Source: Betaproteobacteria bacterium
GTDB taxonomy: Bacteria > Pseudomonadota > Gammaproteobacteria > Burkholderiales > Thiobacillaceae
Assembly (NCBI GenBank): GCA_020049245.1
Contig: JAIFLB010000065.1
Span: 1 to 44,105 of the forward strand
Length of the DNA stretch: 44,105 nt
Direction: 5' to 3'
Both the position numbers and the translations under genes were made by a program. The notes under the pieces were generated by a model. The model did no database searches. It was not told the origin of the DNA and saw only the letters and a list, made by a program, of their open reading frames with translations. The number at the start of each line of letters is the position of its first letter. Position 1 is the first letter of the stretch. This document shows positions 2,557 to 32,915 of the stretch, one piece after another.

Positions 2557-3777
2557 TTGGACAATTTTCACATCCCCATTTCCGCCATCGGCATGGCGAA
2601 TCGAGACCTGCCCAGCGAGCAAGATCGGGGCGATCGTTTGCCGGTGATCGAGGTGTTGGCGGAAATCGCCAGCAGCATGAGTTCTGACGCCAATACGGAA
2701 CAGATGCTGATGCGTTTTCTTGAGATCATGGTGCGCATCTCACGCGCCAAGGCCGGCGCGGTGCGTGTGTTGACCGCCGATGGCGCGCATCTGCGCATGG
2801 CGGGTTCAATCGGCCTGAGTCCGGCGTTGATCGAGAAGGAACGTTATGTGCCGCTCGAATGCGGCATCTGCGGCAAGGCGACGTTGTCGCAAGCATCTCA
2901 GTCCGACAGCGTCATGGAGGTGTGCCAGAAACAGGTTCGCCATATCTATTTTGCGCAAAATTGCAGCACGGTTTACGCGGTGCCGTTGCGCCACAAGGGC
3001 AAGGTGCTTGGGGTTTACAACATCTTTCTGGATAACCCGGCGCCGCTGCCAGAAGACATTCGCTACCTGTTCAATTCGATTAGCGAACACCTGGGCATGG
3101 CGCTGGAAAACACGCGCCTGACGCGCGAGAACATGCGCATCTCGTTGATGAACGAACGCACCATGTTGGCGAATCAGATTCATGATTCGCTGGCGCAGAC
3201 GCTGGCCTACGCCAAGATGCGGTTGACCGTATTGAACGAGGCACTTGCTGAGCAGGATCAGGTGCGCGCCAATCGCTATCTGGGCGAGGTTGAAGAAGCG
3301 GTGGACCTGGCCTATTCGGAATTGCGCAATCTGATTACCCAATTCCGCGATCGCATCGATCCGCGTGGTCTGGTGCCGGCGTTGCAGGAGATGGCAGAAA
3401 GTTTCAGCAAGAAGGCGAATGCGGATGTTGATTTCCTGAATGTGGCGCAGGATGTGGTGCTGACGCCAGAGGAAGAAATTCAGGTGTTCCATATCATTCA
3501 GGAATCGCTTTACAACATCTGCAAGCATGCCCGTGCTCGCCATGTGGTGGTGACACTCGATCTGCACGAAAACGAGTATGTAGTGAATGTGGCGGATGAT
3601 GGTGTTGGCCTGCAGGGCACCGCACTGGCCAATATGGGCAAGAGTTTTGGCCTGACCATCATGCGCGAACGTGCCGCGAAACTGGGCGGTACGCTGACCA
3701 TCGAAAGTCGCGCAGCGGGTGGCACCATCGTGCGGTTGTGTTTCCCGGCGCGTCCGGGGGTTGAGGATCAAGCATGA
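2557..3777 (+). CDS. soluble GAF-domain sensor histidine kinase (NarX/HisKA_3 type)
   Basis: The N-terminal ~190 aa form a GAF-like domain with no TM segments. The H-box is ERTMLANQIHDSLAQTL (HisKA_3), and the C-terminus is HATPase_c (DDGVGL ... GLTIMRERA). The start is uncertain: TTG at 2557 or ATG at 2593. Confidence 0.8.
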   Translation: MDNFHIPISAIGMANRDLPSEQDRGDRLPVIEVLAEIASSMSSDANTEQMLMRFLEIMVRISRAKAGAVRVLTADGAHLRMAGSIGLSPALIEKERYVPLECGICGKATLSQASQSDSVMEVCQKQVRHIYFAQNCSTVYAVPLRHKGKVLGVYNIFLDNPAPLPEDIRYLFNSISEHLGMALENTRLTRENMRISLMNERTMLANQIHDSLAQTLAYAKMRLTVLNEALAEQDQVRANRYLGEVEEAVDLAYSELRNLITQFRDRIDPRGLVPALQEMAESFSKKANADVDFLNVAQDVVLTPEEEIQVFHIIQESLYNICKHARARHVVVTLDLHENEYVVNVADDGVGLQGTALANMGKSFGLTIMRERAAKLGGTLTIESRAAGGTIVRLCFPARPGVEDQA

Positions 3778-4457
3778 ATCCATTACCCGCTGAACAATTA
3801 CGCATTGTTCTGGTTGACGATCACACGCTGTTTCGCAAGGGCTTGGCGGAACTGCTGGAACGTGAGGGCGCGGTCAAGGTGTCGGCGATTACCGGCAACC
3901 CGACCGAGGTTGCCGGTTTGCTGCGCACTTACAGTCCGGATGTGTTGATCCTGGATTTGAATATCGGTGGCACGGATGGGATTCAGGTGATGCAGGAGCT
4001 GCGCGCCGATTCATTCATGCTGCCGGTGCTTTTGCTGACGGTGAGCGAGGCGGAAGAAGACATGGCTCGGGCTCTCCGCAACGGTGCCAATGGCTATCTG
4101 TTGAAGAGCATGGAGCCGGATGAATTGGTCGATGCGATCATCCGCGCAGCTCGGGGTGAAACCGTGGTGGCGCCGGCGATGACGGCAAAATTGGTGCGCA
4201 TGCTGGATGGCAAGAACAACAGCGCAACTTCGTTGCTGGAGTCATTGACCCAGCGCGAGCGGGAAATCCTCAAACATCTGGCCAAGGGCGAGAGCAACAA
4301 GGCGATTGCCCGCGAACTCGATATCAGCTACGACACGGTCAAGTTGCATGTGCGGCATATCCTGGCCAAGCTGAATCTGTCATCGCGGGTTGAGGCTGCC
4401 GTTTTTGCAGTCGAAAACAAGCTTTCGCCCGGCTTCGAGGTGCAACGCAAGAACTGA
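3774..4457 (+). CDS. NarL/LuxR-family response regulator (REC + LuxR HTH)
   Basis: The receiver domain shows LVDDH ... VLILDLNIGGTDG. The C-terminus has LTQREREILKHLAKGESNKAIARELDISYDTVKLHV. The ATGA start/stop overlap with the kinase gene indicates translational coupling. Confidence 0.88.
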   Translation: MNPLPAEQLRIVLVDDHTLFRKGLAELLEREGAVKVSAITGNPTEVAGLLRTYSPDVLILDLNIGGTDGIQVMQELRADSFMLPVLLLTVSEAEEDMARALRNGANGYLLKSMEPDELVDAIIRAARGETVVAPAMTAKLVRMLDGKNNSATSLLESLTQREREILKHLAKGESNKAIARELDISYDTVKLHVRHILAKLNLSSRVEAAVFAVENKLSPGFEVQRKN

Positions 4458-4486: not shown

Positions 4487-5392
4487 TCAGCCGCGCAGGT
4501 TCTGCAGGTGGTCGTGATAGCGAGCCCGGTAAAGCAGGCGGCGATGTTCCGGGCGGTCGGTAAAGCCCGTACGGGTGTGAAGCACGTTGTTGCAGATCAG
4601 GCCCATGCCGGGTTGTAGCTTGAGGCTGAAAACGCCGGCAGGCCGGCTTTCCAGTAATTCTTCCAGGGCTTTTAACGCCGCCTGAGTCGCTACGTCCTGC
4701 TTCCAGGCGATGCTCTTGGTGCGAGCGGTATAGCGCAGATGCAGATGGCCGTTGGCAACGCATAGGGCGGGGCCGGTTTCGTCGCCACGTGCGGTGCCAT
4801 GTTCATCTTCGCGGGCCGGGATGGTCATCGCATCCGTCGCCATCAGGGCACGAATATGCTCAGGATTGGCATCGCGCAGCGCGATATAGGCCAGTTCATG
4901 ATCGAGTAAATCGTTCTCGCCGCCGTCATCTGCTTCTCGCACGCAATGCAGCGTCATCGCGAAGATGCGCCGCTCGGGCGGGTTGTAGTAGCCATCGGTA
5001 TGCCAGCGGATGCGGTGATGTGTGTAGGGTATGAATTCTCCGCGCTTGCTGTTGCCAACCCCGCTGCCTTCGTCCTGTGGCGTCAGGCTGGAAATGCCGT
5101 CTTCGTCGGCTAGCCAGTTGGCATCGAGATGGGTCAGGCCGAACTGGGCGGAAAGTAGGCGTGGGCCGTTCTTGTCTTCGTTTTCGCCCATGCCGGTGGC
5201 ATAAATCGCCATGTTGGTCTTGGCGATGTGCTGCCAGAGCGCGGCATATTCGGCGTTGCTGAGTTGCTTCGGATCGCGCACAGTGACGATCAGGTCTTCG
5301 CCCCGGGGTGGATAATCGGCCAACTTGTCAGCCCGCCAGGAGGCGTAGCCAGCGGCGTTGTCAGGATGGAACGGGCTGTCAAGCGGGATCAT
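4487..5392 (-). CDS. TauD/TfdA-family Fe(II)/2-oxoglutarate dioxygenase-like protein
   Basis: It has the HxD motif in IRWHTDGYY and a distal His in NNVLHTRTGF, with a size (~300 aa) typical of the family. The substrate cannot be inferred. Confidence 0.6.
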   Translation of the reverse strand: MIPLDSPFHPDNAAGYASWRADKLADYPPRGEDLIVTVRDPKQLSNAEYAALWQHIAKTNMAIYATGMGENEDKNGPRLLSAQFGLTHLDANWLADEDGISSLTPQDEGSGVGNSKRGEFIPYTHHRIRWHTDGYYNPPERRIFAMTLHCVREADDGGENDLLDHELAYIALRDANPEHIRALMATDAMTIPAREDEHGTARGDETGPALCVANGHLHLRYTARTKSIAWKQDVATQAALKALEELLESRPAGVFSLKLQPGMGLICNNVLHTRTGFTDRPEHRRLLYRARYHDHLQNLRG

Positions 5393-5401
5393 CTGGCACT
5401 T

Positions 5402-5989
5402 TCAGGCGGGTTCTAATGGCGGGTAAAAACCGTCCATGTTTTTCTTGGCCATATCCATCATCGCCGGCACTTCAATTTCCATTAATTGATCCTGAATCCA
5501 GCTTTGATCGGATTTCTCCATGTCTTCCCGAATCATCAGGCTAAGGAAACGGGCGGGCTGGAAATTTGGTTTGCCATTGGGCAAAGTGAACTCGGCGAAC
5601 TCGGCGTAATCCTGCATTCGCTTGTTGAGCAGCTCGATATAGCCTTCCTGATAGTCATAATTCGGGTCGCGTTCGCCATCATTGAAATCGAGGATGTTCT
5701 GTTCCATCACTTCGGCCAGACGAATGCCGGTGGCACTGATCAGTTCCTGGCGCTGCTCGTCATCCAGGCGGTCGAACGCCAGACGATCCATGTAATGCAC
5801 CAGAAAACAGGTTAGTTCGGCAATGATCTTGAAGCCGCGTTGCGGTGTGATGATGTCGTAGTCGGCCTTGGATAGATTGTCGATTGCCTTGTCGGCAAGC
5901 CGCCACAGCATCGAGGCCATGACGGTGGCGACTTCCTCGGGCGAACGTTCGCCTTCCTTCTTGAACCAGGTGGTTTTGACGCGAAGCAA
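5402..5989 (-). CDS. hypothetical acidic protein (~195 aa)
   Basis: The ORF is long, with no family I recognise. The proposed TTG start at 5989 is preceded by GGAGA (5996-6000 on the complement) and lies 2 nt after the rhodanese stop. The annotated ATG at 6043 would overlap the rhodanese gene by 52 nt. Confidence 0.5.
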   Translation of the reverse strand: MLRVKTTWFKKEGERSPEEVATVMASMLWRLADKAIDNLSKADYDIITPQRGFKIIAELTCFLVHYMDRLAFDRLDDEQRQELISATGIRLAEVMEQNILDFNDGERDPNYDYQEGYIELLNKRMQDYAEFAEFTLPNGKPNFQPARFLSLMIREDMEKSDQSWIQDQLMEIEVPAMMDMAKKNMDGFYPPLEPA

Positions 5990-5991
5990 AG

Positions 5992-6840
5992 TTATTCTCC
6001 AGTCGCGACTGGCCGGGATGGATCGCGAATCCACTCGCTCCATGAGCCGGGATAAAGACGGGAACCGGGCAGACCGGCGATTTCCATGGCCAACAGGTTA
6101 TGGCAGGCGGTGACGCCTGAGCCGCAGGTGTGAATGACTTGCCAGGCGGGTCGGCCTTTCAGCATGGCCTGGAAGTTTTCACGTAATGCCTCAGGCGGCA
6201 AATAGGTGCCGTCGATATCAAGATTTTCGTCAAACGCCCAGTTGATCGAGCCGGGGATGTGTCCGGCAACCGGGTCTAGCGGTTCGAATTCGCCGGTGAA
6301 ACGGCGTTCCGGGCGCGCGTCGATGATCATTTGCTCGCCGGTTTTTACCGCATGCAGCACTTCGTCGGCTGACACGATCTGGGTCGGTTCCGGTAAACAG
6401 GCGCATCGGCCTTTAGCCAGTTCGGGTAAATCGGAGGTCAGTGGCCGCTTTTCGCGCTGCCATTTGGGAAATCCGCCATCCAGCAAGGCAACTGCGGGGT
6501 GACCCAGCCAGCGCAGCATCCACCAGGCGCGCACAGCCATGGCTCCGAAGCTGTCGTCATAAACAACGACCTGCTTGTTGACGCCAATACCCCAATTGCA
6601 AACCTTCTTGGCGAATTCTTCTGGATCAGGCAGCGGGTGGCGGCCGGTGGATTCGGTGATTTGCGTCGACAGATCCTCATCAAGATGGACATACCGAGCG
6701 CCGGGAATGTGGTTTTTCAGATAAGCCTGACGTCCGCCTTCGGGGTCGGTCAGGGTGAAGCGGCAATCAAGCACGATCCAGTTTGGGTCATCCAGATGCT
6801 GAGCCAGGTCTTCGGTACTTACGATGGTGTTGATGAACAT
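5992..6840 (-). CDS. sseA: two-domain rhodanese, 3-mercaptopyruvate sulfurtransferase type
   Basis: It has a tandem rhodanese architecture. The active-site loop CGSGVTAC in the C-terminal domain matches the CG[ST]GVTA signature of MST/SseA rather than the CRKGVTA signature of TST. I prefer the start at MFINTIVSTEDL (ATG 6840). Confidence 0.8.
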   Translation of the reverse strand: MFINTIVSTEDLAQHLDDPNWIVLDCRFTLTDPEGGRQAYLKNHIPGARYVHLDEDLSTQITESTGRHPLPDPEEFAKKVCNWGIGVNKQVVVYDDSFGAMAVRAWWMLRWLGHPAVALLDGGFPKWQREKRPLTSDLPELAKGRCACLPEPTQIVSADEVLHAVKTGEQMIIDARPERRFTGEFEPLDPVAGHIPGSINWAFDENLDIDGTYLPPEALRENFQAMLKGRPAWQVIHTCGSGVTACHNLLAMEIAGLPGSRLYPGSWSEWIRDPSRPVATGE

Positions 6841-6924
6841 GAGAGTGTGGAATCGGTTACGCGCTGTCGATAGGTGGAGAGAACTCGCCGCCACACCTGC
6901 GGCAGCGCGTAATTGCTTGCTAGA

Positions 6925-7257
6925 TTAGTAGCCGCCTTTGCCAAATGGCTTCGGCATGCCGGCAACCTTGGCGGATTGACGGTTGGGTTGCAGCGGGAAG
7001 AGTTCGTACAGCTTCTTCTTCCAGTCCACGCTGTCGTCTTCTTCGTCAAGCATGGCTACCATATTCCGGAAGTTGGGCGTGTGGCCGTCTTCCTGATAAC
7101 GCTCACGCATGAAGCGAACGACCTGCCAATGTTCATCCGTCAGGTTGATCTTTTCTGCAGCGGCAATAACTGGTACGACGTCATCACTGAAATTGGCTTC
7201 GACCAGAAAGCCGTCGTCGTCAGTCTCAAGTTCTTCGCCGTTAACGATATAACCCAT
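6925..7257 (-). CDS. DsrC/TusE-family protein lacking both conserved C-terminal cysteines
   Basis: It aligns by eye with the bona fide DsrC at 12118..12453 (EHWQVVRFMRERY vs SHWDVVNFLREYY; KLYELFP vs YLYELFP; AKVAGMPKP vs CKIAGLPKP). It ends ...SAKVAGMPKPFGKGGY and contains no Cys at all. A good RBS, AGGAGAAAACC, precedes the ATG. Confidence 0.78.
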   Translation of the reverse strand: MGYIVNGEELETDDDGFLVEANFSDDVVPVIAAAEKINLTDEHWQVVRFMRERYQEDGHTPNFRNMVAMLDEEDDSVDWKKKLYELFPLQPNRQSAKVAGMPKPFGKGGY

Positions 7258-7326
7258 GGTTTTCTCCTATTGAGCGGGTTGAAAAAAGTTTGAAAACTCA
7301 CATCAGGAGGCACGCAACCGTAACAT

Positions 7327-7980
7327 TCAGTCGATTGCTACTTCCTTGATCGATTTATGCGGAATGAAGATTCCGCAGCCATAACCACGATGCAAACCAA
7401 GGCCACGTTCCTGCAGGATCATCGATTGCATCAAGTCGATATCGTGCAGCATCAGGCTGTAACCGCCAATTACCCTTTTGGGGATGTGCATTCTCTGAGC
7501 CTTGCCAGGGATAAGGCCAGCTTTTATGCCAATCTCTTCCATCAAGCCTCTGATTCCATTTAGAAAAAGTGCCTCATCCTCGGTGTCTACAGAAACAAAA
7601 TGTGAATACAGCGTGGCATATGGCGTCACCGCTTTTTCTTTCAAGTCGCCTATGTGCAGCTTTCCCGCACCAGGATCAATTTCCTTGCCAACCAGTTCAC
7701 GTGCGTCGGCAACGTGTTCAACCGGCATCCGCAAAACCAGCTTGACGCGGCGGTTGATCACCAGATTTTCATTGCGTCCACTCGGTGTCGCATGCACGGG
7801 ATGAATGCCTGCATTGGCTAGATCGCGCAGCCAGGGGAGGTGTCTGACAATCTCTTCGAACAGCGCATAACCATGATCGGCAGGAATTTCGAAGCCGGTC
7901 AGGTCGAATTGAAGGTCGGTGACCTTGGGTGTGTAGTTGAGTCGCTTCAGCGCCTCCCACTCAGCGTTGTACATGCGCAT
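7327..7980 (-). CDS. Cas6/Cmx6-like RAMP-superfamily protein (orphan, no CRISPR context)
   Basis: The N-terminus, DLQFDLTGFEIPADHGYALFEEIVRHLPWL, resembles the N-terminal signature I remember for type I-MYXAN Cas6/Cmx6. The C-terminal glycine-rich loop GLGLHRGYGCGIFIP resembles the RAMP G-loop, and the size is ~217 aa. The call rests on memory of the family and needs a profile or structure search. Confidence 0.45.
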   Translation of the reverse strand: MRMYNAEWEALKRLNYTPKVTDLQFDLTGFEIPADHGYALFEEIVRHLPWLRDLANAGIHPVHATPSGRNENLVINRRVKLVLRMPVEHVADARELVGKEIDPGAGKLHIGDLKEKAVTPYATLYSHFVSVDTEDEALFLNGIRGLMEEIGIKAGLIPGKAQRMHIPKRVIGGYSLMLHDIDLMQSMILQERGLGLHRGYGCGIFIPHKSIKEVAID

Positions 7981-7983
7981 GAA

Positions 7984-8262
7984 TCAACTTCCTTTCGAAG
8001 AGTCATCCGCATTAGCCAGCGGTGTGGCCCACTTTAGCATTTCATCGGCCCAGTACTTGGCGGTAACGGGATCGATATCGAAAACCGTGAAGCGAGCGCC
8101 GCGCTCTCGAATGCGTAAACGCAGCATCGGTGTGCCACCACCCTCATACAAGACTTCCTGGATTTCAATTTCTTGATTGCCAAAAGGGTTACGAAACTTC
8201 GCAATTGGATTTAGTTGGTTCATAATAAATAAGTATTTGGTGATCTGCTGATTATCTGACAT
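7984..8262 (-). CDS. hypothetical small protein (79-92 aa)
   Basis: This is the first ORF of the minus-strand operon, and its stop lies 3 nt upstream of the Cas6-like start (TGA TTC ATG). I recognise no family. The start is ambiguous (ATG 8262 or ATG 8223), and neither has a strong RBS. Confidence 0.4.
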   Translation of the reverse strand: MSDNQQITKYLFIMNQLNPIAKFRNPFGNQEIEIQEVLYEGGGTPMLRLRIRERGARFTVFDIDPVTAKYWADEMLKWATPLANADDSSKGS

Positions 8263-8486
8263 TTTTAGTCAGGTATAGACACATCCCTCAGGGTTATTTT
8301 GAACCTACCCGAAAGGATAGGTTCTGGATTACCCGAGTGAAATACCCGGTTACCCCTTCGGAATGATGGTTAGGATGATAAGTGCTCCCTAATATGCATG
8401 CACTCGTTCCGTATGGCGTTTGTCTGCGGGAAGGTGCTGTGAATTGTGACGACACCCTGTAGTTAAGACTTCAAGGAGATATACAG
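8263..8486. promoter_or_regulatory. divergent control region between dsrA and the minus-strand accessory operon
   Basis: This 224-nt gap lies between divergent operons, so it must carry both promoters. It contains an inverted repeat GAACCTA (8301-8307) / TAGGTTC (8318-8324) and three TACCC[GC] direct repeats (8330, 8343, 8351). A possible -35/-10 pair is TGGTTA (8367-8372) and TAATAT (8390-8395) with a 17-nt spacer. The dsrA RBS is AAGGAGA (8473-8479). The promoter hexamers are guesses. Confidence 0.5.
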
Positions 8487-9785
8487 ATGGCAAAACCAAT
8501 GCATGAAACGCCGAACCTGGACGAACTCGAGACCGGCCCCTGGCCCTCATTTGTCACCGGTCTGAAGCGTCTGGCAAAAGATAACGACATGATGGTTGAC
8601 CTGATGGGTCAACTGGAAACCTCCTACCAGACCAAATTTGGTTACTGGAAGGGTGGTACCGTGGGTGTTGTTGGTTACGGTGGTGGTGTTATTCCCCGTT
8701 TTACCGAACTGAAGGACGAGAACGGCGCTCCCCGTTTCCCCGAAGCTGCTGAATTCCACACCCTGCGCATCCAGCCGCCCGCTGGTATGCATTACACCTC
8801 GGACCTGCTGCGTCAGTTGTCCGATGCCTGGTTGGAGACCGGTGGTTCTGGTCTGATTGCTTTCCACGGCCAGTCTGGCGACATCATGTTCCAGGGTATC
8901 AAGACTGAGAATGTGCAAAAGGCCTTCGACAAGTTCAATGAAATGGGCTTCGACTTGGGCGGTGCTGGTCCTGCATTGCGTACCTCCATGTCCTGCGTCG
9001 GTGCGGCTCGTTGCGAAATGTCGTGTTATGACGAAGCCCGCGCTCTGCGGACAGTCATCAACAACAACCTGGACGACATGCATCGCCCGTCACTGCCTTA
9101 CAAGTTCAAGTTCAAGTTCTCCGGTTGCCCGAACGACTGTATGAACGCCATCCAGCGTTCTGACATGGCGACCATCGGCACCTGGCGTGACAACATGCGC
9201 GCTGACGAGAAGCTGGCACGTGAGTGGTATGCCGCTCACAGCATCGAAGACACCATCAACATGGTTGTCAATCACTGTCCGACCAAGGCTATCCAGCTGA
9301 AAAAGAATGATGGTGCTGTCGCGGCTGAAGGCGTCACCAAAGTTGCGATCTCTGACGATCATTGCCTGGAAATTGACAACCATAACTGCGTGCGTTGCAT
9401 GCACTGTCTGAACGTTATGCCGGGCGCATTGCTGCCAGGTAAAGACAAGGGTGTCACCATCCTGGTTGGCGGCAAGGGCGTGCTGAAGATCGGCGCTTCG
9501 ATGGGTACCGTTGTGATTCCGTTCATGAAGATGGAATCCGATGATGATTTCGAGCGTTTGAACGACCTATCCCGCAGCATCCTCGACTTCTTCGCAGAAA
9601 ATGCGCTGGAGCATGAGCGTACCGGCGAGATGATCGAGCGTATTGGTCTGGTCAATTTCCTCGAAGGTCTCGATATCGAAATTGATCCCAGCATGATCGT
9701 GCATCCGCGTACGAATCCGTACTTCCGTTCGGATGATTGGGATGAGGAAGCTGAAAAGTGGTTCGAACGTAAGGCTGCTGCTTAA
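8487..9785 (+). CDS. dsrA: reverse dissimilatory sulfite reductase, alpha subunit
   Basis: The N-terminus, LDELETGPWPSFVTGLKRL, is typical of DsrA. Siroheme/FeS Cys motifs and a ferredoxin-like insert (CVRCMHC) are present, and the gene heads the dsr cluster. Confidence 0.95.
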   Translation: MAKPMHETPNLDELETGPWPSFVTGLKRLAKDNDMMVDLMGQLETSYQTKFGYWKGGTVGVVGYGGGVIPRFTELKDENGAPRFPEAAEFHTLRIQPPAGMHYTSDLLRQLSDAWLETGGSGLIAFHGQSGDIMFQGIKTENVQKAFDKFNEMGFDLGGAGPALRTSMSCVGAARCEMSCYDEARALRTVINNNLDDMHRPSLPYKFKFKFSGCPNDCMNAIQRSDMATIGTWRDNMRADEKLAREWYAAHSIEDTINMVVNHCPTKAIQLKKNDGAVAAEGVTKVAISDDHCLEIDNHNCVRCMHCLNVMPGALLPGKDKGVTILVGGKGVLKIGASMGTVVIPFMKMESDDDFERLNDLSRSILDFFAENALEHERTGEMIERIGLVNFLEGLDIEIDPSMIVHPRTNPYFRSDDWDEEAEKWFERKAAA

Positions 9786-9809: not shown

Positions 9810-9841
9810 TTCCGTGGCGCTCTGGAAAGCGCGTCACGGAA
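9810..9841 (+). other. intercistronic stem-loop after dsrA
   Basis: TTCCGTGGCGC (9810-9820) pairs with GCGCGTCACGGAA (9829-9841), giving 11 bp with a 2-nt bulge and an 8-nt loop. It is followed by AAAAAGTTTT. Confidence 0.5.
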
Positions 9842-9875
9842 AAAAGTTTTCCGATCTTATTAGTTGGAGAAAAGT

Positions 9876-10957: not shown

Positions 10958-10976
10958 CCCGGGATCAAGTCCCGGG
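10958..10976 (+). other. intercistronic stem-loop after dsrB
   Basis: CCCGGGA (10958-10964) and TCCCGGG (10970-10976) form a perfect 7-bp stem with a 5-nt loop, 9 nt after the dsrB stop. Confidence 0.45.
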
Positions 10977-12117: not shown

Positions 12118-12453
12118 ATGCCTATGGTTGAAGTTGCCGGCAAGAGTTTTGAGGTTGATGAGGAAGGCTATCTGACCAACCTGAACGATTGGAACCAGGA
12201 TATCGCTGAGTATCTGGCCAAGGAAGAAAAGGTTGAAATGACCGAGAGTCACTGGGACGTGGTCAACTTCCTGCGTGAATACTACGACGAGTATCAAATT
12301 GCTCCCGCCGTTCGCGTTCTGACCAAAGCTGTGGCCAAGAAACTCGGGCCTGAAAAAGGAAACAACAAGTATCTGTATGAGTTGTTCCCTTACGGACCCG
12401 CCAAGCAAGCCTGCAAAATCGCAGGTCTGCCGAAACCGACCGGATGTATCTAA
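12118..12453 (+). CDS. dsrC: DsrC, the sulfur-carrier substrate protein of DsrAB
   Basis: The C-terminal arm is canonical, ...PAKQACKIAGLPKPTGCI, with both conserved cysteines. The RBS AAAGGAG lies upstream. Confidence 0.95.
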   Translation: MPMVEVAGKSFEVDEEGYLTNLNDWNQDIAEYLAKEEKVEMTESHWDVVNFLREYYDEYQIAPAVRVLTKAVAKKLGPEKGNNKYLYELFPYGPAKQACKIAGLPKPTGCI

Positions 12454-12472: not shown

Positions 12473-12475
12473 AAA

Positions 12476-12500
12476 CTTGACGGGCTAGCCGCCCGTCAAG
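12476..12500 (+). terminator. stem-loop 2 after dsrC (possible partial terminator or mRNA stabiliser)
   Basis: CTTGACGGGC (12476-12485) and GCCCGTCAAG (12491-12500) form a perfect GC-rich 10-bp stem with a 5-nt loop. No T-tract follows, so it is more likely an attenuator or stability element than a full terminator. Confidence 0.45.
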
Positions 12501-20915: not shown

Positions 20916-20967
20916 ATTTTTTTGCAAGTCCACCGGAGCATGTCTCCGTTTTATGAGAGGAAATGAA

Positions 20968-21342
20968 ATGATCAGTCTGACCAAACAAGCCGCGGACCAG
21001 ATCCGCACTGCCGCCATTGAATCGGGTGCCGACAACCTGGGCTTGCGTATTGCCGCGCGGGTCAATGATGCCGGCATGCTGGAATTCGGCATGGGATTCG
21101 ATGAAGAGCGCAGCAATGATGCAGCGGTTGATTCCTGGGGCGTCACGTTGTTGATCAACGCTCAATCGAAGCCTTACCTTGACGATGTGACGATTGATTT
21201 CACCGAAGTCAATCCAGGCGAAAGCCGCTTCGTGTTCAGCAAGGCCAGTGCTGGCGGTGGTTGTGGTAGTGGTGGCGGCGGTGGCGGTGGTTGTGGCAGC
21301 GGTGGCTGTGGTACTGGTGGCGGCTGCGGTAGCAGCAACTGA
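20968..21342 (+). CDS. dsrR: DsrR, IscA/HesB-like protein with a Gly/Cys-rich C-terminal tail
   Basis: The core is IscA-like (MISLTKQAADQIR ... GLRIAA ... FGMGFDEE ... IDF) and lacks the core cysteines. It ends in GGGCGSGGGGGGGCGSGGCGTGGGCGSSN. I prefer the ATG at 20968, after GAGAGGA, over the ATG at 20953. Confidence 0.7.
   Translation: MISLTKQAADQIRTAAIESGADNLGLRIAARVNDAGMLEFGMGFDEERSNDAAVDSWGVTLLINAQSKPYLDDVTIDFTEVNPGESRFVFSKASAGGGCGSGGGGGGGCGSGGCGTGGGCGSSN
21253..21306 (+). repeat. imperfect 24-nt direct repeat with 30-nt period inside the dsrR tail
   Basis: GGCGGTGGTTGTGGTAGTGGTGGC (21253-21276) and GGCGGTGGTTGTGGCAGCGGTGGC (21283-21306) differ at 2 positions. They sit within a longer GGY-rich tract that encodes the Gly/Cys tail. 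Confidence 0.8.
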
Positions 21343-32324: not shown

Positions 32325-32915
32325 TCAGCGGCGTCTGAACCAGCCTGTCAAACTGAGTCGTTGCCGCTGCGCCGGGGCGACTTCGTGCCAGAAGCGATCC
32401 GATAAAAACGTGACCAGTGTGCCGCCGGTGGGGGCGATTTCGATCGGGTCGCAATGTTCATCCGGCCAGAAACGGAGTTGGCCGCCATCAGCTGCAGTCC
32501 AGTTTTCATTCAGGTAAATAATGACCGTCAAGGCGCGACGGTCATCGCTTTGAAAGCGGTCCAGATGTCGACGATAGCCAGTACCGGGCGGGTAGGCGGC
32601 GAAGTGGAGCTCAACGTCGAACAGGCCGAGATACAGGCTTTGATTGACCGCGCGGCGCAGGTCTTCGAGCTTTTCCTGTACCGCTTGTATTGCCGGGCCG
32701 GCAACGCTTTCGTCGATCCAGAGCACCTGATCGCCACGGATTTCCGAGCGGACTTCCGCCACACCCTTGCCTACGCCTGCCGCATGAAAAGCACCATTGG
32801 CATGCGCGGCGAGGCATTCATTTCTTAATGCGGCAGTTTCTGTTGCGCTCAGGAAGTCGGGCAGCACACACCAACCGGGATCGGCCAGCGCGGCGGCGAC
32901 CTTGTTTGTCGGCAT
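32325..32915 (-). CDS. 2OG-Fe(II) oxygenase (prolyl-hydroxylase-like)
   Basis: It has YRRHLDRF (HxD), IIYLN..W....GG.L and a distal His in FWHEV. Confidence 0.7.
   Translation of the reverse strand: MPTNKVAAALADPGWCVLPDFLSATETAALRNECLAAHANGAFHAAGVGKGVAEVRSEIRGDQVLWIDESVAGPAIQAVQEKLEDLRRAVNQSLYLGLFDVELHFAAYPPGTGYRRHLDRFQSDDRRALTVIIYLNENWTAADGGQLRFWPDEHCDPIEIAPTGGTLVTFLSDRFWHEVAPAQRQRLSLTGWFRRR

Follow-up and report, generated by a model that had tools for sequence, protein, structure and literature searches.

A conserved six-gene block divergent from dsrA, with a Cas6 homolog and a cysteine-free DsrC paralog, as a candidate accessory module of oxidative Dsr

Oxidative Dsr is the main cytoplasmic sulfur-oxidation route in many environmentally dominant bacteria, and in Allochromatium vinosum a cytoplasmic relay of rhodanese (Rhd), TusA and DsrE2 is established as feeding DsrEFH and DsrC. 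The textbook Dsr gene set goes back to Allochromatium, an anaerobic phototroph that is reported to lack dsrQ. Here, we describe a block of six genes (g1 to g6) that lies divergent from dsrA on a contig of 44,105 nucleotides from a betaproteobacterium of the Thiobacillaceae (JAIFLB010000065.1, assembly GCA_020049245.1); this whole stretch is called the window below. In Thiobacillus-, Gallionellaceae- and Thiothrix-type organisms the block forms a second, equally conserved operon across the dsrA promoter, and Dsr in oxygen-exposed sulfur oxidisers would thus have components that are left out of current models. We read the block, with a probability of about one half, as a module that serves oxidative Dsr in an accessory or regulatory role in oxygen-exposed, aerobic or facultative sulfur-oxidising Proteobacteria, and not as another sulfur relay. 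That it is a conserved functional unit linked to Dsr, whatever its task, we consider very likely.

Several described systems resemble parts of this block. A tauD-like gene upstream of dsrA was named dsrQ by Lenk et al. 2012 (as cited in section 17 of PMC7596348). The passages of Löffler et al. 2020 (PMC7596348) on this gene report it from Roseobacter fosmids and from the majority of chemotrophic sulfur oxidisers that are aerobic or facultative, and the corresponding passages there and in PMC9371685 speculate that its product frees sulfite from sulfonates. In the literature, Cys-less paralogs of DsrC/TusE figure as putative regulatory proteins (Venceslau et al. 2014, cited in both PMC9371685 and PMC8477390). 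For the alphaproteobacterium Methylovirgula thiovorans, a set of neighbouring genes is reported with tusA (00072), dsrE2 (00073), a DsrC-like protein without CysA that is described as probably regulatory (00075), TauD/DsrQ (00078) and dsrAB (00079-80) (PMC9371685). Finally, derivatives of CRISPR systems that lack an array have been exapted, such as a Streptomyces I-E derivative with a STAND NTPase and the haloarchaeal HRAMP; the review of these derivatives names none that consists of one Cas6 within a metabolic operon (PMC8730458).

The six open reading frames (ORFs) of the block are all encoded on the minus strand and are flanked by a two-component system and dsrA. Families were called with Pfam and NCBIfam at their curated cut-offs, and the features that the argument needs are the following.

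7984..8223, minus strand: g1, DUF6967 protein of 79 amino acids (Pfam, E 4.6e-26)
7327..7980, minus strand: g2, Cas6/Cmx6-like RAMP protein of 217 amino acids (PF09559, TIGR02807)
6925..7257, minus strand: g3, Cys-free DsrC/TusE paralog of 110 amino acids (PF04358)
6857..6912, minus strand: stem-loop in the g3-g4 spacer, without a U-tract
5992..6840, minus strand: g4, two-domain rhodanese of the 3-mercaptopyruvate sulfurtransferase (MST) type (two PF00581 stretches)
5402..5989, minus strand: g5, acidic six-helix protein of 195 amino acids from an unnamed family (without Pfam or NCBIfam match)
4487..5392, minus strand: g6, Fe(II)/2-oxoglutarate dioxygenase of the TauD/TfdA family, equated here with dsrQ, 301 amino acids (PF02668)
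8224..8486, no strand: control region common to g1 and dsrA, 263 nucleotides (alignments of 67-69 loci)
8487..9785, plus strand: dsrA, first gene of dsrABEFHCMKLJOPN-R (TIGR02064, 499 bits)

An earlier note, made from the letters of this DNA, had listed the same six ORFs. They were reproduced from the ORFs of the window, each of its domain calls was confirmed, and the listed starts give the same gaps of 3 (g1-g2), 69, 84, 2 (g4-g5) and 9 (g5-g6) nucleotides. Its control region of 224 nucleotides had to be corrected. The start of g1 is Met14 of the long ORF (8223), as most relatives have stop codons within the 13 upstream codons and the homologs are 79-80 amino acids long; this sets the control region to 8224-8486 (263 nucleotides). 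The start of g4 is an ATG, the 19th codon of its long ORF, and that of g5 is a TTG preceded by GGAGA (the g5 homologs have 195 amino acids). Terminator-like sites within the block do not exceed the number expected by chance. From this layout, the six genes probably form one operon and are co-transcribed.

The block is held together far beyond this contig. Screening a single genome for each GTDB species yielded 75 loci (numbered with the prefix L, as are the further loci below), mostly from Thiobacillaceae, Hydrogenophilales, Gallionellaceae and Parasulfuritortus, and the closest relatives of the window are metagenome-assembled genomes of uncultured Thiobacillus (L001, L002). Synteny was counted by tblastn of the window proteins against the fetched loci. 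All six genes recur in the same order in the betaproteobacterial loci (n=70), with g1 present in 69, g2 and g3 in 70 each, g4 in 68, g5 in 66 and g6 in 60. Absences sit at contig ends, apart from five that concern g6 (L051, L060, L061, L047, L062). dsrA is divergently adjacent in every betaproteobacterial locus with enough upstream sequence (63/63). Synteny with dsr had been proposed beforehand as a check on the earlier note, and these counts bear it out.

In Gammaproteobacteria the unit is looser. Genes for DsrQ, the Cas6-like protein and the DsrC-like protein adjoin dsrA in Thiothrix and two unclassified gammaproteobacterial loci (L072-L074). The DsrC-like protein was confirmed to end in KGGY in L073 and L074, where the small ORFs between the DsrQ and Cas6-like genes are not detectably DUF6967 or g5. 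In another unclassified gammaproteobacterial locus (L075), dsrA is followed by the genes for DsrQ, DUF6967, the Cas6-like protein and a g5-like protein, and Thiohalomonas (L071) has the Cas6-like gene, the DsrC paralog with its KGGY end and g5, with no dsrA found in its 12 kb of sequence. Still more distant metagenomic versions were located by exact look-ups of distant members of the g5 family; they are given with the identity of their g5.

L087, g5 34% identical: all six genes
L088, g5 29% identical: DUF6967, Cas6, a TusA-TusA fusion, DsrC(KGGY), a second DsrC-like protein, g5, DsrQ
L086, g5 40% identical: Cas6, DsrC(KGGY), g5, DsrQ
L079, g5 23% identical: Cas6, DsrC(KGGY), g5, DsrQ, then a Fer2/FAD reductase; TusA-DsrE2-YeeE on the opposite strand
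L076, g5 30% identical: g5, DsrQ

About 70 genomes keep this gene order, and so do relatives with a g5 of 23-34% identity, which places the arrangement far beyond chance. Since the order persists down to these distant versions, the unit is ancient and under selection as a unit; we regard it as vertically conserved.

The control region is conserved as well. Its length is similar in nearly all loci (221-247 nucleotides, counted from the long-ORF start of g1). Two palindromes are conserved in it, namely ACCTACCC-N4-GGGTAGGT at 8303-8322 and CTGAC-N7-GTCAG at 8256-8272, just upstream of g1. Three further TACCC direct repeats stand at 8330, 8343 and 8351, a conserved block GTTACCCCTTCGGAATGATGG at 8349-8369 and a -10-like TAATAT upstream of dsrA at 8390-8395; half-sites of the TACCC type resemble NarL heptamers. 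In the pair counts the palindrome cores are invariant, and their flanks pair in 43-57% of the sequences, which is modestly above random. The palindrome at 8303-8322 is lengthened to 11-20 base pairs in some lineages, with flanks that differ in sequence, and its G-U pairs show no strand bias. Given the invariant core and the lack of G-U strand bias, the palindromes are more likely operators for a dimeric DNA-binding protein, common to both operons, than RNA hairpins. Together with the tight conservation beside dsrA, these shared operator-like palindromes make an accessory or regulatory role the most reasonable reading. The earlier note had suggested such a module of oxidative Dsr: the conserved unit tied to dsrA and the palindromes support that part; the mechanism offered below is inferred.

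We now turn to the proteins, starting with the dioxygenase. g6 matches PF02668 with 63.3 bits (cut-off 27, E 4.4e-17), it retains the HxD...H iron triad, and WHTDGYY and NVLHxR are both invariant motifs. Based on family and position, we take it to be the dsrQ of the literature, which likewise is a TauD-family gene divergent from dsrA in chemotrophic sulfur oxidisers. The cited papers, however, treat dsrQ as a single gene, whereas g6 closes a conserved unit of six genes and constantly follows a member of the g5 family. Moreover, TmpA and the hydroxylases of butyrobetaine and trimethyllysine appear to be nearer to g6 in sequence than TauD is. Its nearest characterised relatives are TmpA, trimethyllysine dioxygenase (TMLD) and gamma-butyrobetaine dioxygenase (BBOX), all far below the cut-offs, and no TauD equivalog or alkylsulfatase-type model in NCBIfam matches it.

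Its constant companion g5 has an isoelectric point of 4.5 and an AlphaFold2 (AF2) model of six helices with a predicted local distance difference test score (pLDDT) of 82. The profile search with g5 gave 320 clusters at 50% identity. Distant relatives of g5 (L090 114-4300, L091 and L071 2451-4214) are found near a DUF6866 gene, 2-oxoglutarate (2OG)-Fe(II) oxygenases of the prolyl-hydroxylase type and a TauE exporter, so that g5 might be a partner of 2OG oxygenases in general. Almost always, g5 stands immediately upstream of an oxygenase gene; in L076, L079, L086, L087 and L088 the next gene is TauD-like, and the g5 and DsrQ genes overlap in L087 and L088. In L079 (2343-3803), the DsrQ gene overlaps a downstream gene for a Fer2/FAD-binding reductase of 486 amino acids, which hints that the oxygenase has a dedicated electron donor in some lineages.

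The role that the literature speculates on for dsrQ, sulfonate scavenging, would make DsrQ a sulfonate dioxygenase of the TauD type that frees sulfite, with neighbours that are only loosely related to it. The Pfam match of g6, the speculation in the cited passages and the TauE-type exporter near the g5 relative of L090 agree with this. But the missing NCBIfam matches speak against it, as do the nearest relatives, which act on ammonium compounds, and the block contains no sulfonate transporter. Scavenging would also leave unexplained why g5, the KGGY-ended DsrC paralog and the Cas6-like protein stay with DsrQ across such large distances. We regard it as improbable.

The DsrC paralog, g3, is recognised by PF04358 (107.6 bits, E 5.4e-31) and TIGR03342 (85.4 bits, cut-off 53.5) and aligns end to end with A. 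vinosum DsrC (1yx3, E 8e-15). It contains no Cys at all, has Lys107 at the CysA position and Ala at the CysB position, and thus shows neither the CysB-X10-CysA spacing nor the CysA in a PKPTGC motif by which DsrC is defined. All of its 73 relatives end in KGGY and 70 of them are Cys-free; the versions of L079, L086, L087 and L088 have the same end. Without a Cys, g3 cannot relay sulfur as DsrC does. It shares the DsrC family, the lack of Cys and the location by dsr with the Cys-less paralogs of the 'RspA' type, but it is part of a clearly delimited subgroup, marked by an invariant C-terminal KGGY and by Lys in the place of CysA, for which we found no description in the open-access literature. 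In L088, the KGGY protein is followed by a second Cys-free DsrC-like protein that ends in TKGEH.

A strong, conserved Shine-Dalgarno sequence, AGGAGAAAACC, precedes g3, and the stem-loop of the g3-g4 spacer follows it. The sequence of this stem-loop is lineage-specific, with pairing-preserving changes in the arms among close relatives and other hairpins in other lineages. Both elements suggest differential expression within the operon, and the stem-loop may favour expression of g3 over that of g4-g6.

These properties of g3 could also be explained by protection or maturation of the Dsr proteins. The Cys-free paralog would then plug the substrate channel of DsrAB or chaperone DsrAB/DsrMK under oxygen, DsrQ and g5 would consume or sense O2, and the nucleic-acid binders would be incidental. 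Such a role fits a tail that is conserved like the DsrC arm yet ends in KGGY, the high g3 expression suggested by the Shine-Dalgarno sequence and, going by the dsrQ passages of PMC7596348, the occurrence of dsrQ mainly in aerobic or facultative sulfur oxidisers. However, the sulfurtransferase and the most conserved pair, formed by the Cas6-like protein and DUF6967, are left without a part in it, and we assign it a low probability.

That sulfurtransferase, g4, has two rhodanese domains and an active-site loop, CGSGVTACHN, that does not vary among 68 sequences. In NCBIfam it scores best with the 3-mercaptopyruvate sulfurtransferase model NF008557, at 165.7 bits and thus below the cut-off of 250; by these scores g4 represents a subfamily related to E. 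coli SseA/MST that falls short of the equivalog level. In L088 (1022-2351), the TusA-TusA fusion takes the rhodanese position, with both CPxP motifs intact.

An MST-type rhodanese with an intact active site invites the idea that the block acts instead of TusA and DsrE2 in delivering sulfane sulfur to DsrEFH/DsrC, and the earlier note had indeed claimed that the block replaces these two proteins. Like the Rhd-TusA-DsrE2 relay, the block has a rhodanese (TusA in L088) and is encoded near dsr, but it lacks DsrE2 and a Cys-bearing DsrC-paralog acceptor and adds three protein families. Homologs of TusA or DsrE2 were found neither in the window nor, for the betaproteobacterial loci, up to 10 kb from the module, an absence that holds for this neighbourhood. 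The idea of a replacement fails since the DsrC paralog cannot carry sulfur and since TusA and DsrE2 coexist with the module, as seen from the TusA-TusA protein of L088, the TusA-DsrE2-YeeE genes by the L079 module and the tusA and dsrE2 of M. thiovorans, which adjoin the Cys-less dsrC-like gene and dsrQ (PMC9371685). We thus consider an alternative relay quite unlikely and do not retain the claim.

The Cas6-like protein, g2, is the least expected member of the block. It scores 166.9 bits against PF09559 (cut-off 26.7, E 6.7e-49) and 139.4 bits against TIGR02807 cas6_cmx6 (cut-off 98.85), and it matches a type I-B Cas6 in the PDB (8fcj_B, E 1.6e-14). Among the 120 matches listed from 801 relatives, nearly all have 217 amino acids and are 60-95% identical, and an alignment of 17 sequences has 62 invariant columns. 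To the genuine Cmx6 Cas6 of cyanobacterial plasmids (L082-L085), which are encoded beside cas3, cmx8 and cas5, g2 is 25-27% identical. All four share with it a G-rich loop, Q..G.G..R..GCG.F.P, and a D35-H36 motif, and His36 is the probable catalytic residue on this comparison. The dsr-linked clade has an invariant tail of its own, PHKSIKEV.

Neither a CRISPR array nor homologs of cas3, cmx8, cas7 or cas5 were found across the window and the 91 further loci (1.3 Mb in all), and Cas6 was the sole PADLOC match. Gene content thus marks g2 as a Cas6 homolog outside any CRISPR-Cas system. It belongs to the same Pfam and TIGRFAM family as the Cas6/Cmx6 proteins of type I-MYXAN and type I-B systems and shares their D-H motif and G-rich loop. 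Unlike them, it comes without an array or another cas gene, occupies a fixed place in an operon of sulfur metabolism and shows far stronger conservation than cas genes usually do. The exapted CRISPR derivatives likewise consist of RAMP proteins recruited outside canonical CRISPR immunity; these, however, are multi-Cas, effector-like modules with a predicted role in defence, whereas g2 is a single Cas6 homolog in a metabolic operon.

For DUF6967 (g1), the AF2 model (pLDDT 80) consists of four strands and a helix. The top Foldseek matches are the bacterial PC4 homolog 5a4n (template modelling (TM) scores of 0.56/0.64) and Pur-alpha, with Whirly also found, at E values of about 0.1. The predicted fold thus bears a weak resemblance to these binders of single-stranded nucleic acid, with the same topology of four strands plus helix. 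There is no sequence similarity between g1 and these proteins, a profile search of the PDB with DUF6967 returned no match, and nucleic-acid binding by g1 is putative.

A TusE family member, two putative nucleic-acid binders, a sulfurtransferase and a dioxygenase in one operon might also stand for RNA (tRNA) thiolation or modification of the Tus type: the rhodanese would mobilise sulfur, the TusE-like protein would act as adaptor, the Cas6-like protein and DUF6967 would hold the RNA and DsrQ would hydroxylate the base. We judge this very unlikely, as the block has no PP-loop ATPase or other nucleoside-activating enzyme, its TusE-like protein lacks the sulfur-carrying Cys and strict dsrA linkage in 63/63 loci is unexpected for housekeeping RNA modification. 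A decayed CRISPR-Cas remnant or a defence island that came to lie beside dsr by chance, to which the TIGR02807 and PADLOC matches could point, is effectively refuted by the lack of arrays and other cas genes in the window and the 91 further loci, by the near-constant length and high identity of g2 and by its fixed place in a metabolic operon across Beta- and Gammaproteobacteria.

How, then, could an accessory or regulatory module work? The catalytic motifs are intact (CGSGVTA of the rhodanese, HxD...H of DsrQ and the D-H motif and G-rich loop of the Cas6-like protein), and the proteins may be arranged as three coupled pairs: DUF6967 with the Cas6-like protein, the sulfurtransferase with the KGGY-ended DsrC paralog, and g5 with DsrQ. 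In this scheme, g5 and DsrQ would form an O2-dependent enzyme pair. The DsrC paralog would be a mimic of DsrC that carries no sulfur, with a flexible tail bearing Lys-Gly-Gly-Tyr in place of the catalytic Cys; it could dock into the partners that bind DsrC (DsrAB, DsrEFH, DsrK), or be the substrate of DsrQ. The sulfurtransferase (rhodanese or TusA) would provide a persulfide as signal or as substrate. Nucleic acid, most likely RNA, would be bound by DUF6967 and the Cas6-like protein, which would link this status to the expression of dsr or of the module. The module as a whole would report oxygen and persulfide status to Dsr, either via RNA or via DsrC mimicry.

Not all steps of this scheme are equally plausible. 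An action of the Cas6-like/DUF6967 pair on RNA for the purpose of regulation is a tentative proposal, and that DsrQ modifies the DsrC paralog or g5 is more doubtful. The most specific version is a long shot: a domesticated Cas6 and a PC4-like DUF6967 would control dsr mRNAs, while DsrQ and g5 would hydroxylate the Lys or Tyr of KGGY and so switch the partners of the mimic according to O2 and persulfide supply. For this hydroxylation, oxygen sensing of the hypoxia-inducible factor (HIF) type serves as an analogy.

A number of results weigh against our reading. No sequence-conserved RNA hairpin fit to be a Cas6 target was found among the palindromes or the spacer hairpins, and an Rfam search of the window gave no match. 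The two conserved palindromes of the control region, considered as an RNA target of the Cas6-like protein, behave like DNA operators instead. GC-rich stem-loops also occur in the dsrA-dsrB (9810-9842), dsrB-dsrE (10958-10976) and dsrC-dsrM (12475-12500) spacers, and the hairpins within the dsr operon are conserved in structure only, as was seen across loci for the first two. These and the g3-g4 hairpin are unlikely targets, because their sequences vary while the Cas6-like protein is so conserved. The PC4-like match of DUF6967 is weak, as its Foldseek E value indicates, and g5 has no fold relative in the PDB (best TM 0.33), where sequence and profile searches were empty as well. DsrQ is not strictly required in cis: within about 9 kb, g6 is absent from L051, L060 and L061, with the operon of the latter two stopping at g5, after which convergent genes follow, and in L047 and L062 the DsrQ gene has moved about 7 kb away. 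Lastly, a purely regulatory model does not easily accommodate a sulfurtransferase whose Cys is active.

The earlier note had called the block undescribed. This does not hold for dsrQ, named by Lenk et al. 2012, or for Cys-less DsrC paralogs in general; it does hold, as far as the open-access literature goes, for three other families, since we found no mention there of DUF6967, a Cas6 homolog/Cmx6 or the g5 family in a sulfur or dsr context. The T. denitrificans locus tags of the block had no match in open-access text either, and genome papers on Thiobacillus thioparus and on dsr-bearing iron oxidisers do not mention the block. The conserved set of six genes, in which an orphan homolog of Cas6 stands with a DsrC mimic that has a KGGY tail, appears not to have been described yet. 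For one Cas6 homolog to be fixed within a metabolic operon would be unusual. The KGGY-tailed mimic, the g5-DsrQ pair and the two conserved operators are concrete objects for testing, and the six genes could be used as metagenome markers for this type of Dsr.

The surroundings of the block offer a few more details. The two-component system convergent with g6 and the DsrC proper of the dsr cluster are located as follows.

2557..4457, plus strand: GAF/HisKA_3 histidine kinase and NarL/LuxR-type response regulator (Pfam), convergent with g6
12118-12453, plus strand: DsrC proper, in the plus-strand dsr cluster

A soluble GAF and HisKA_3 kinase with a CGICG motif and its NarL/LuxR regulator directly follow g6 in 24-25 of the 70 loci, and they may regulate dsr, with the regulator binding the TACCC sites. 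On the plus strand, the neighbours comprise dsrA, dsrB, dsrE, dsrF, dsrC, dsrM, dsrK, a DsrL-like flavoprotein, a DsrN-like amidase and the IscA-like DsrR. A conserved ATTCGGAGATAGGGATAT block precedes dsrE. About 27 kb from the six genes, a 2OG-FeII_Oxy_3 gene (32325-32915) lies beside a DUF4139 gene. DsrR (20953-21342) has a Gly/Cys-rich C-terminal tail, GGGCGSGGGGGGGCGSGGCGTGGGCGSSN, which stems from a short degenerate tandem repeat at 21252-21326.

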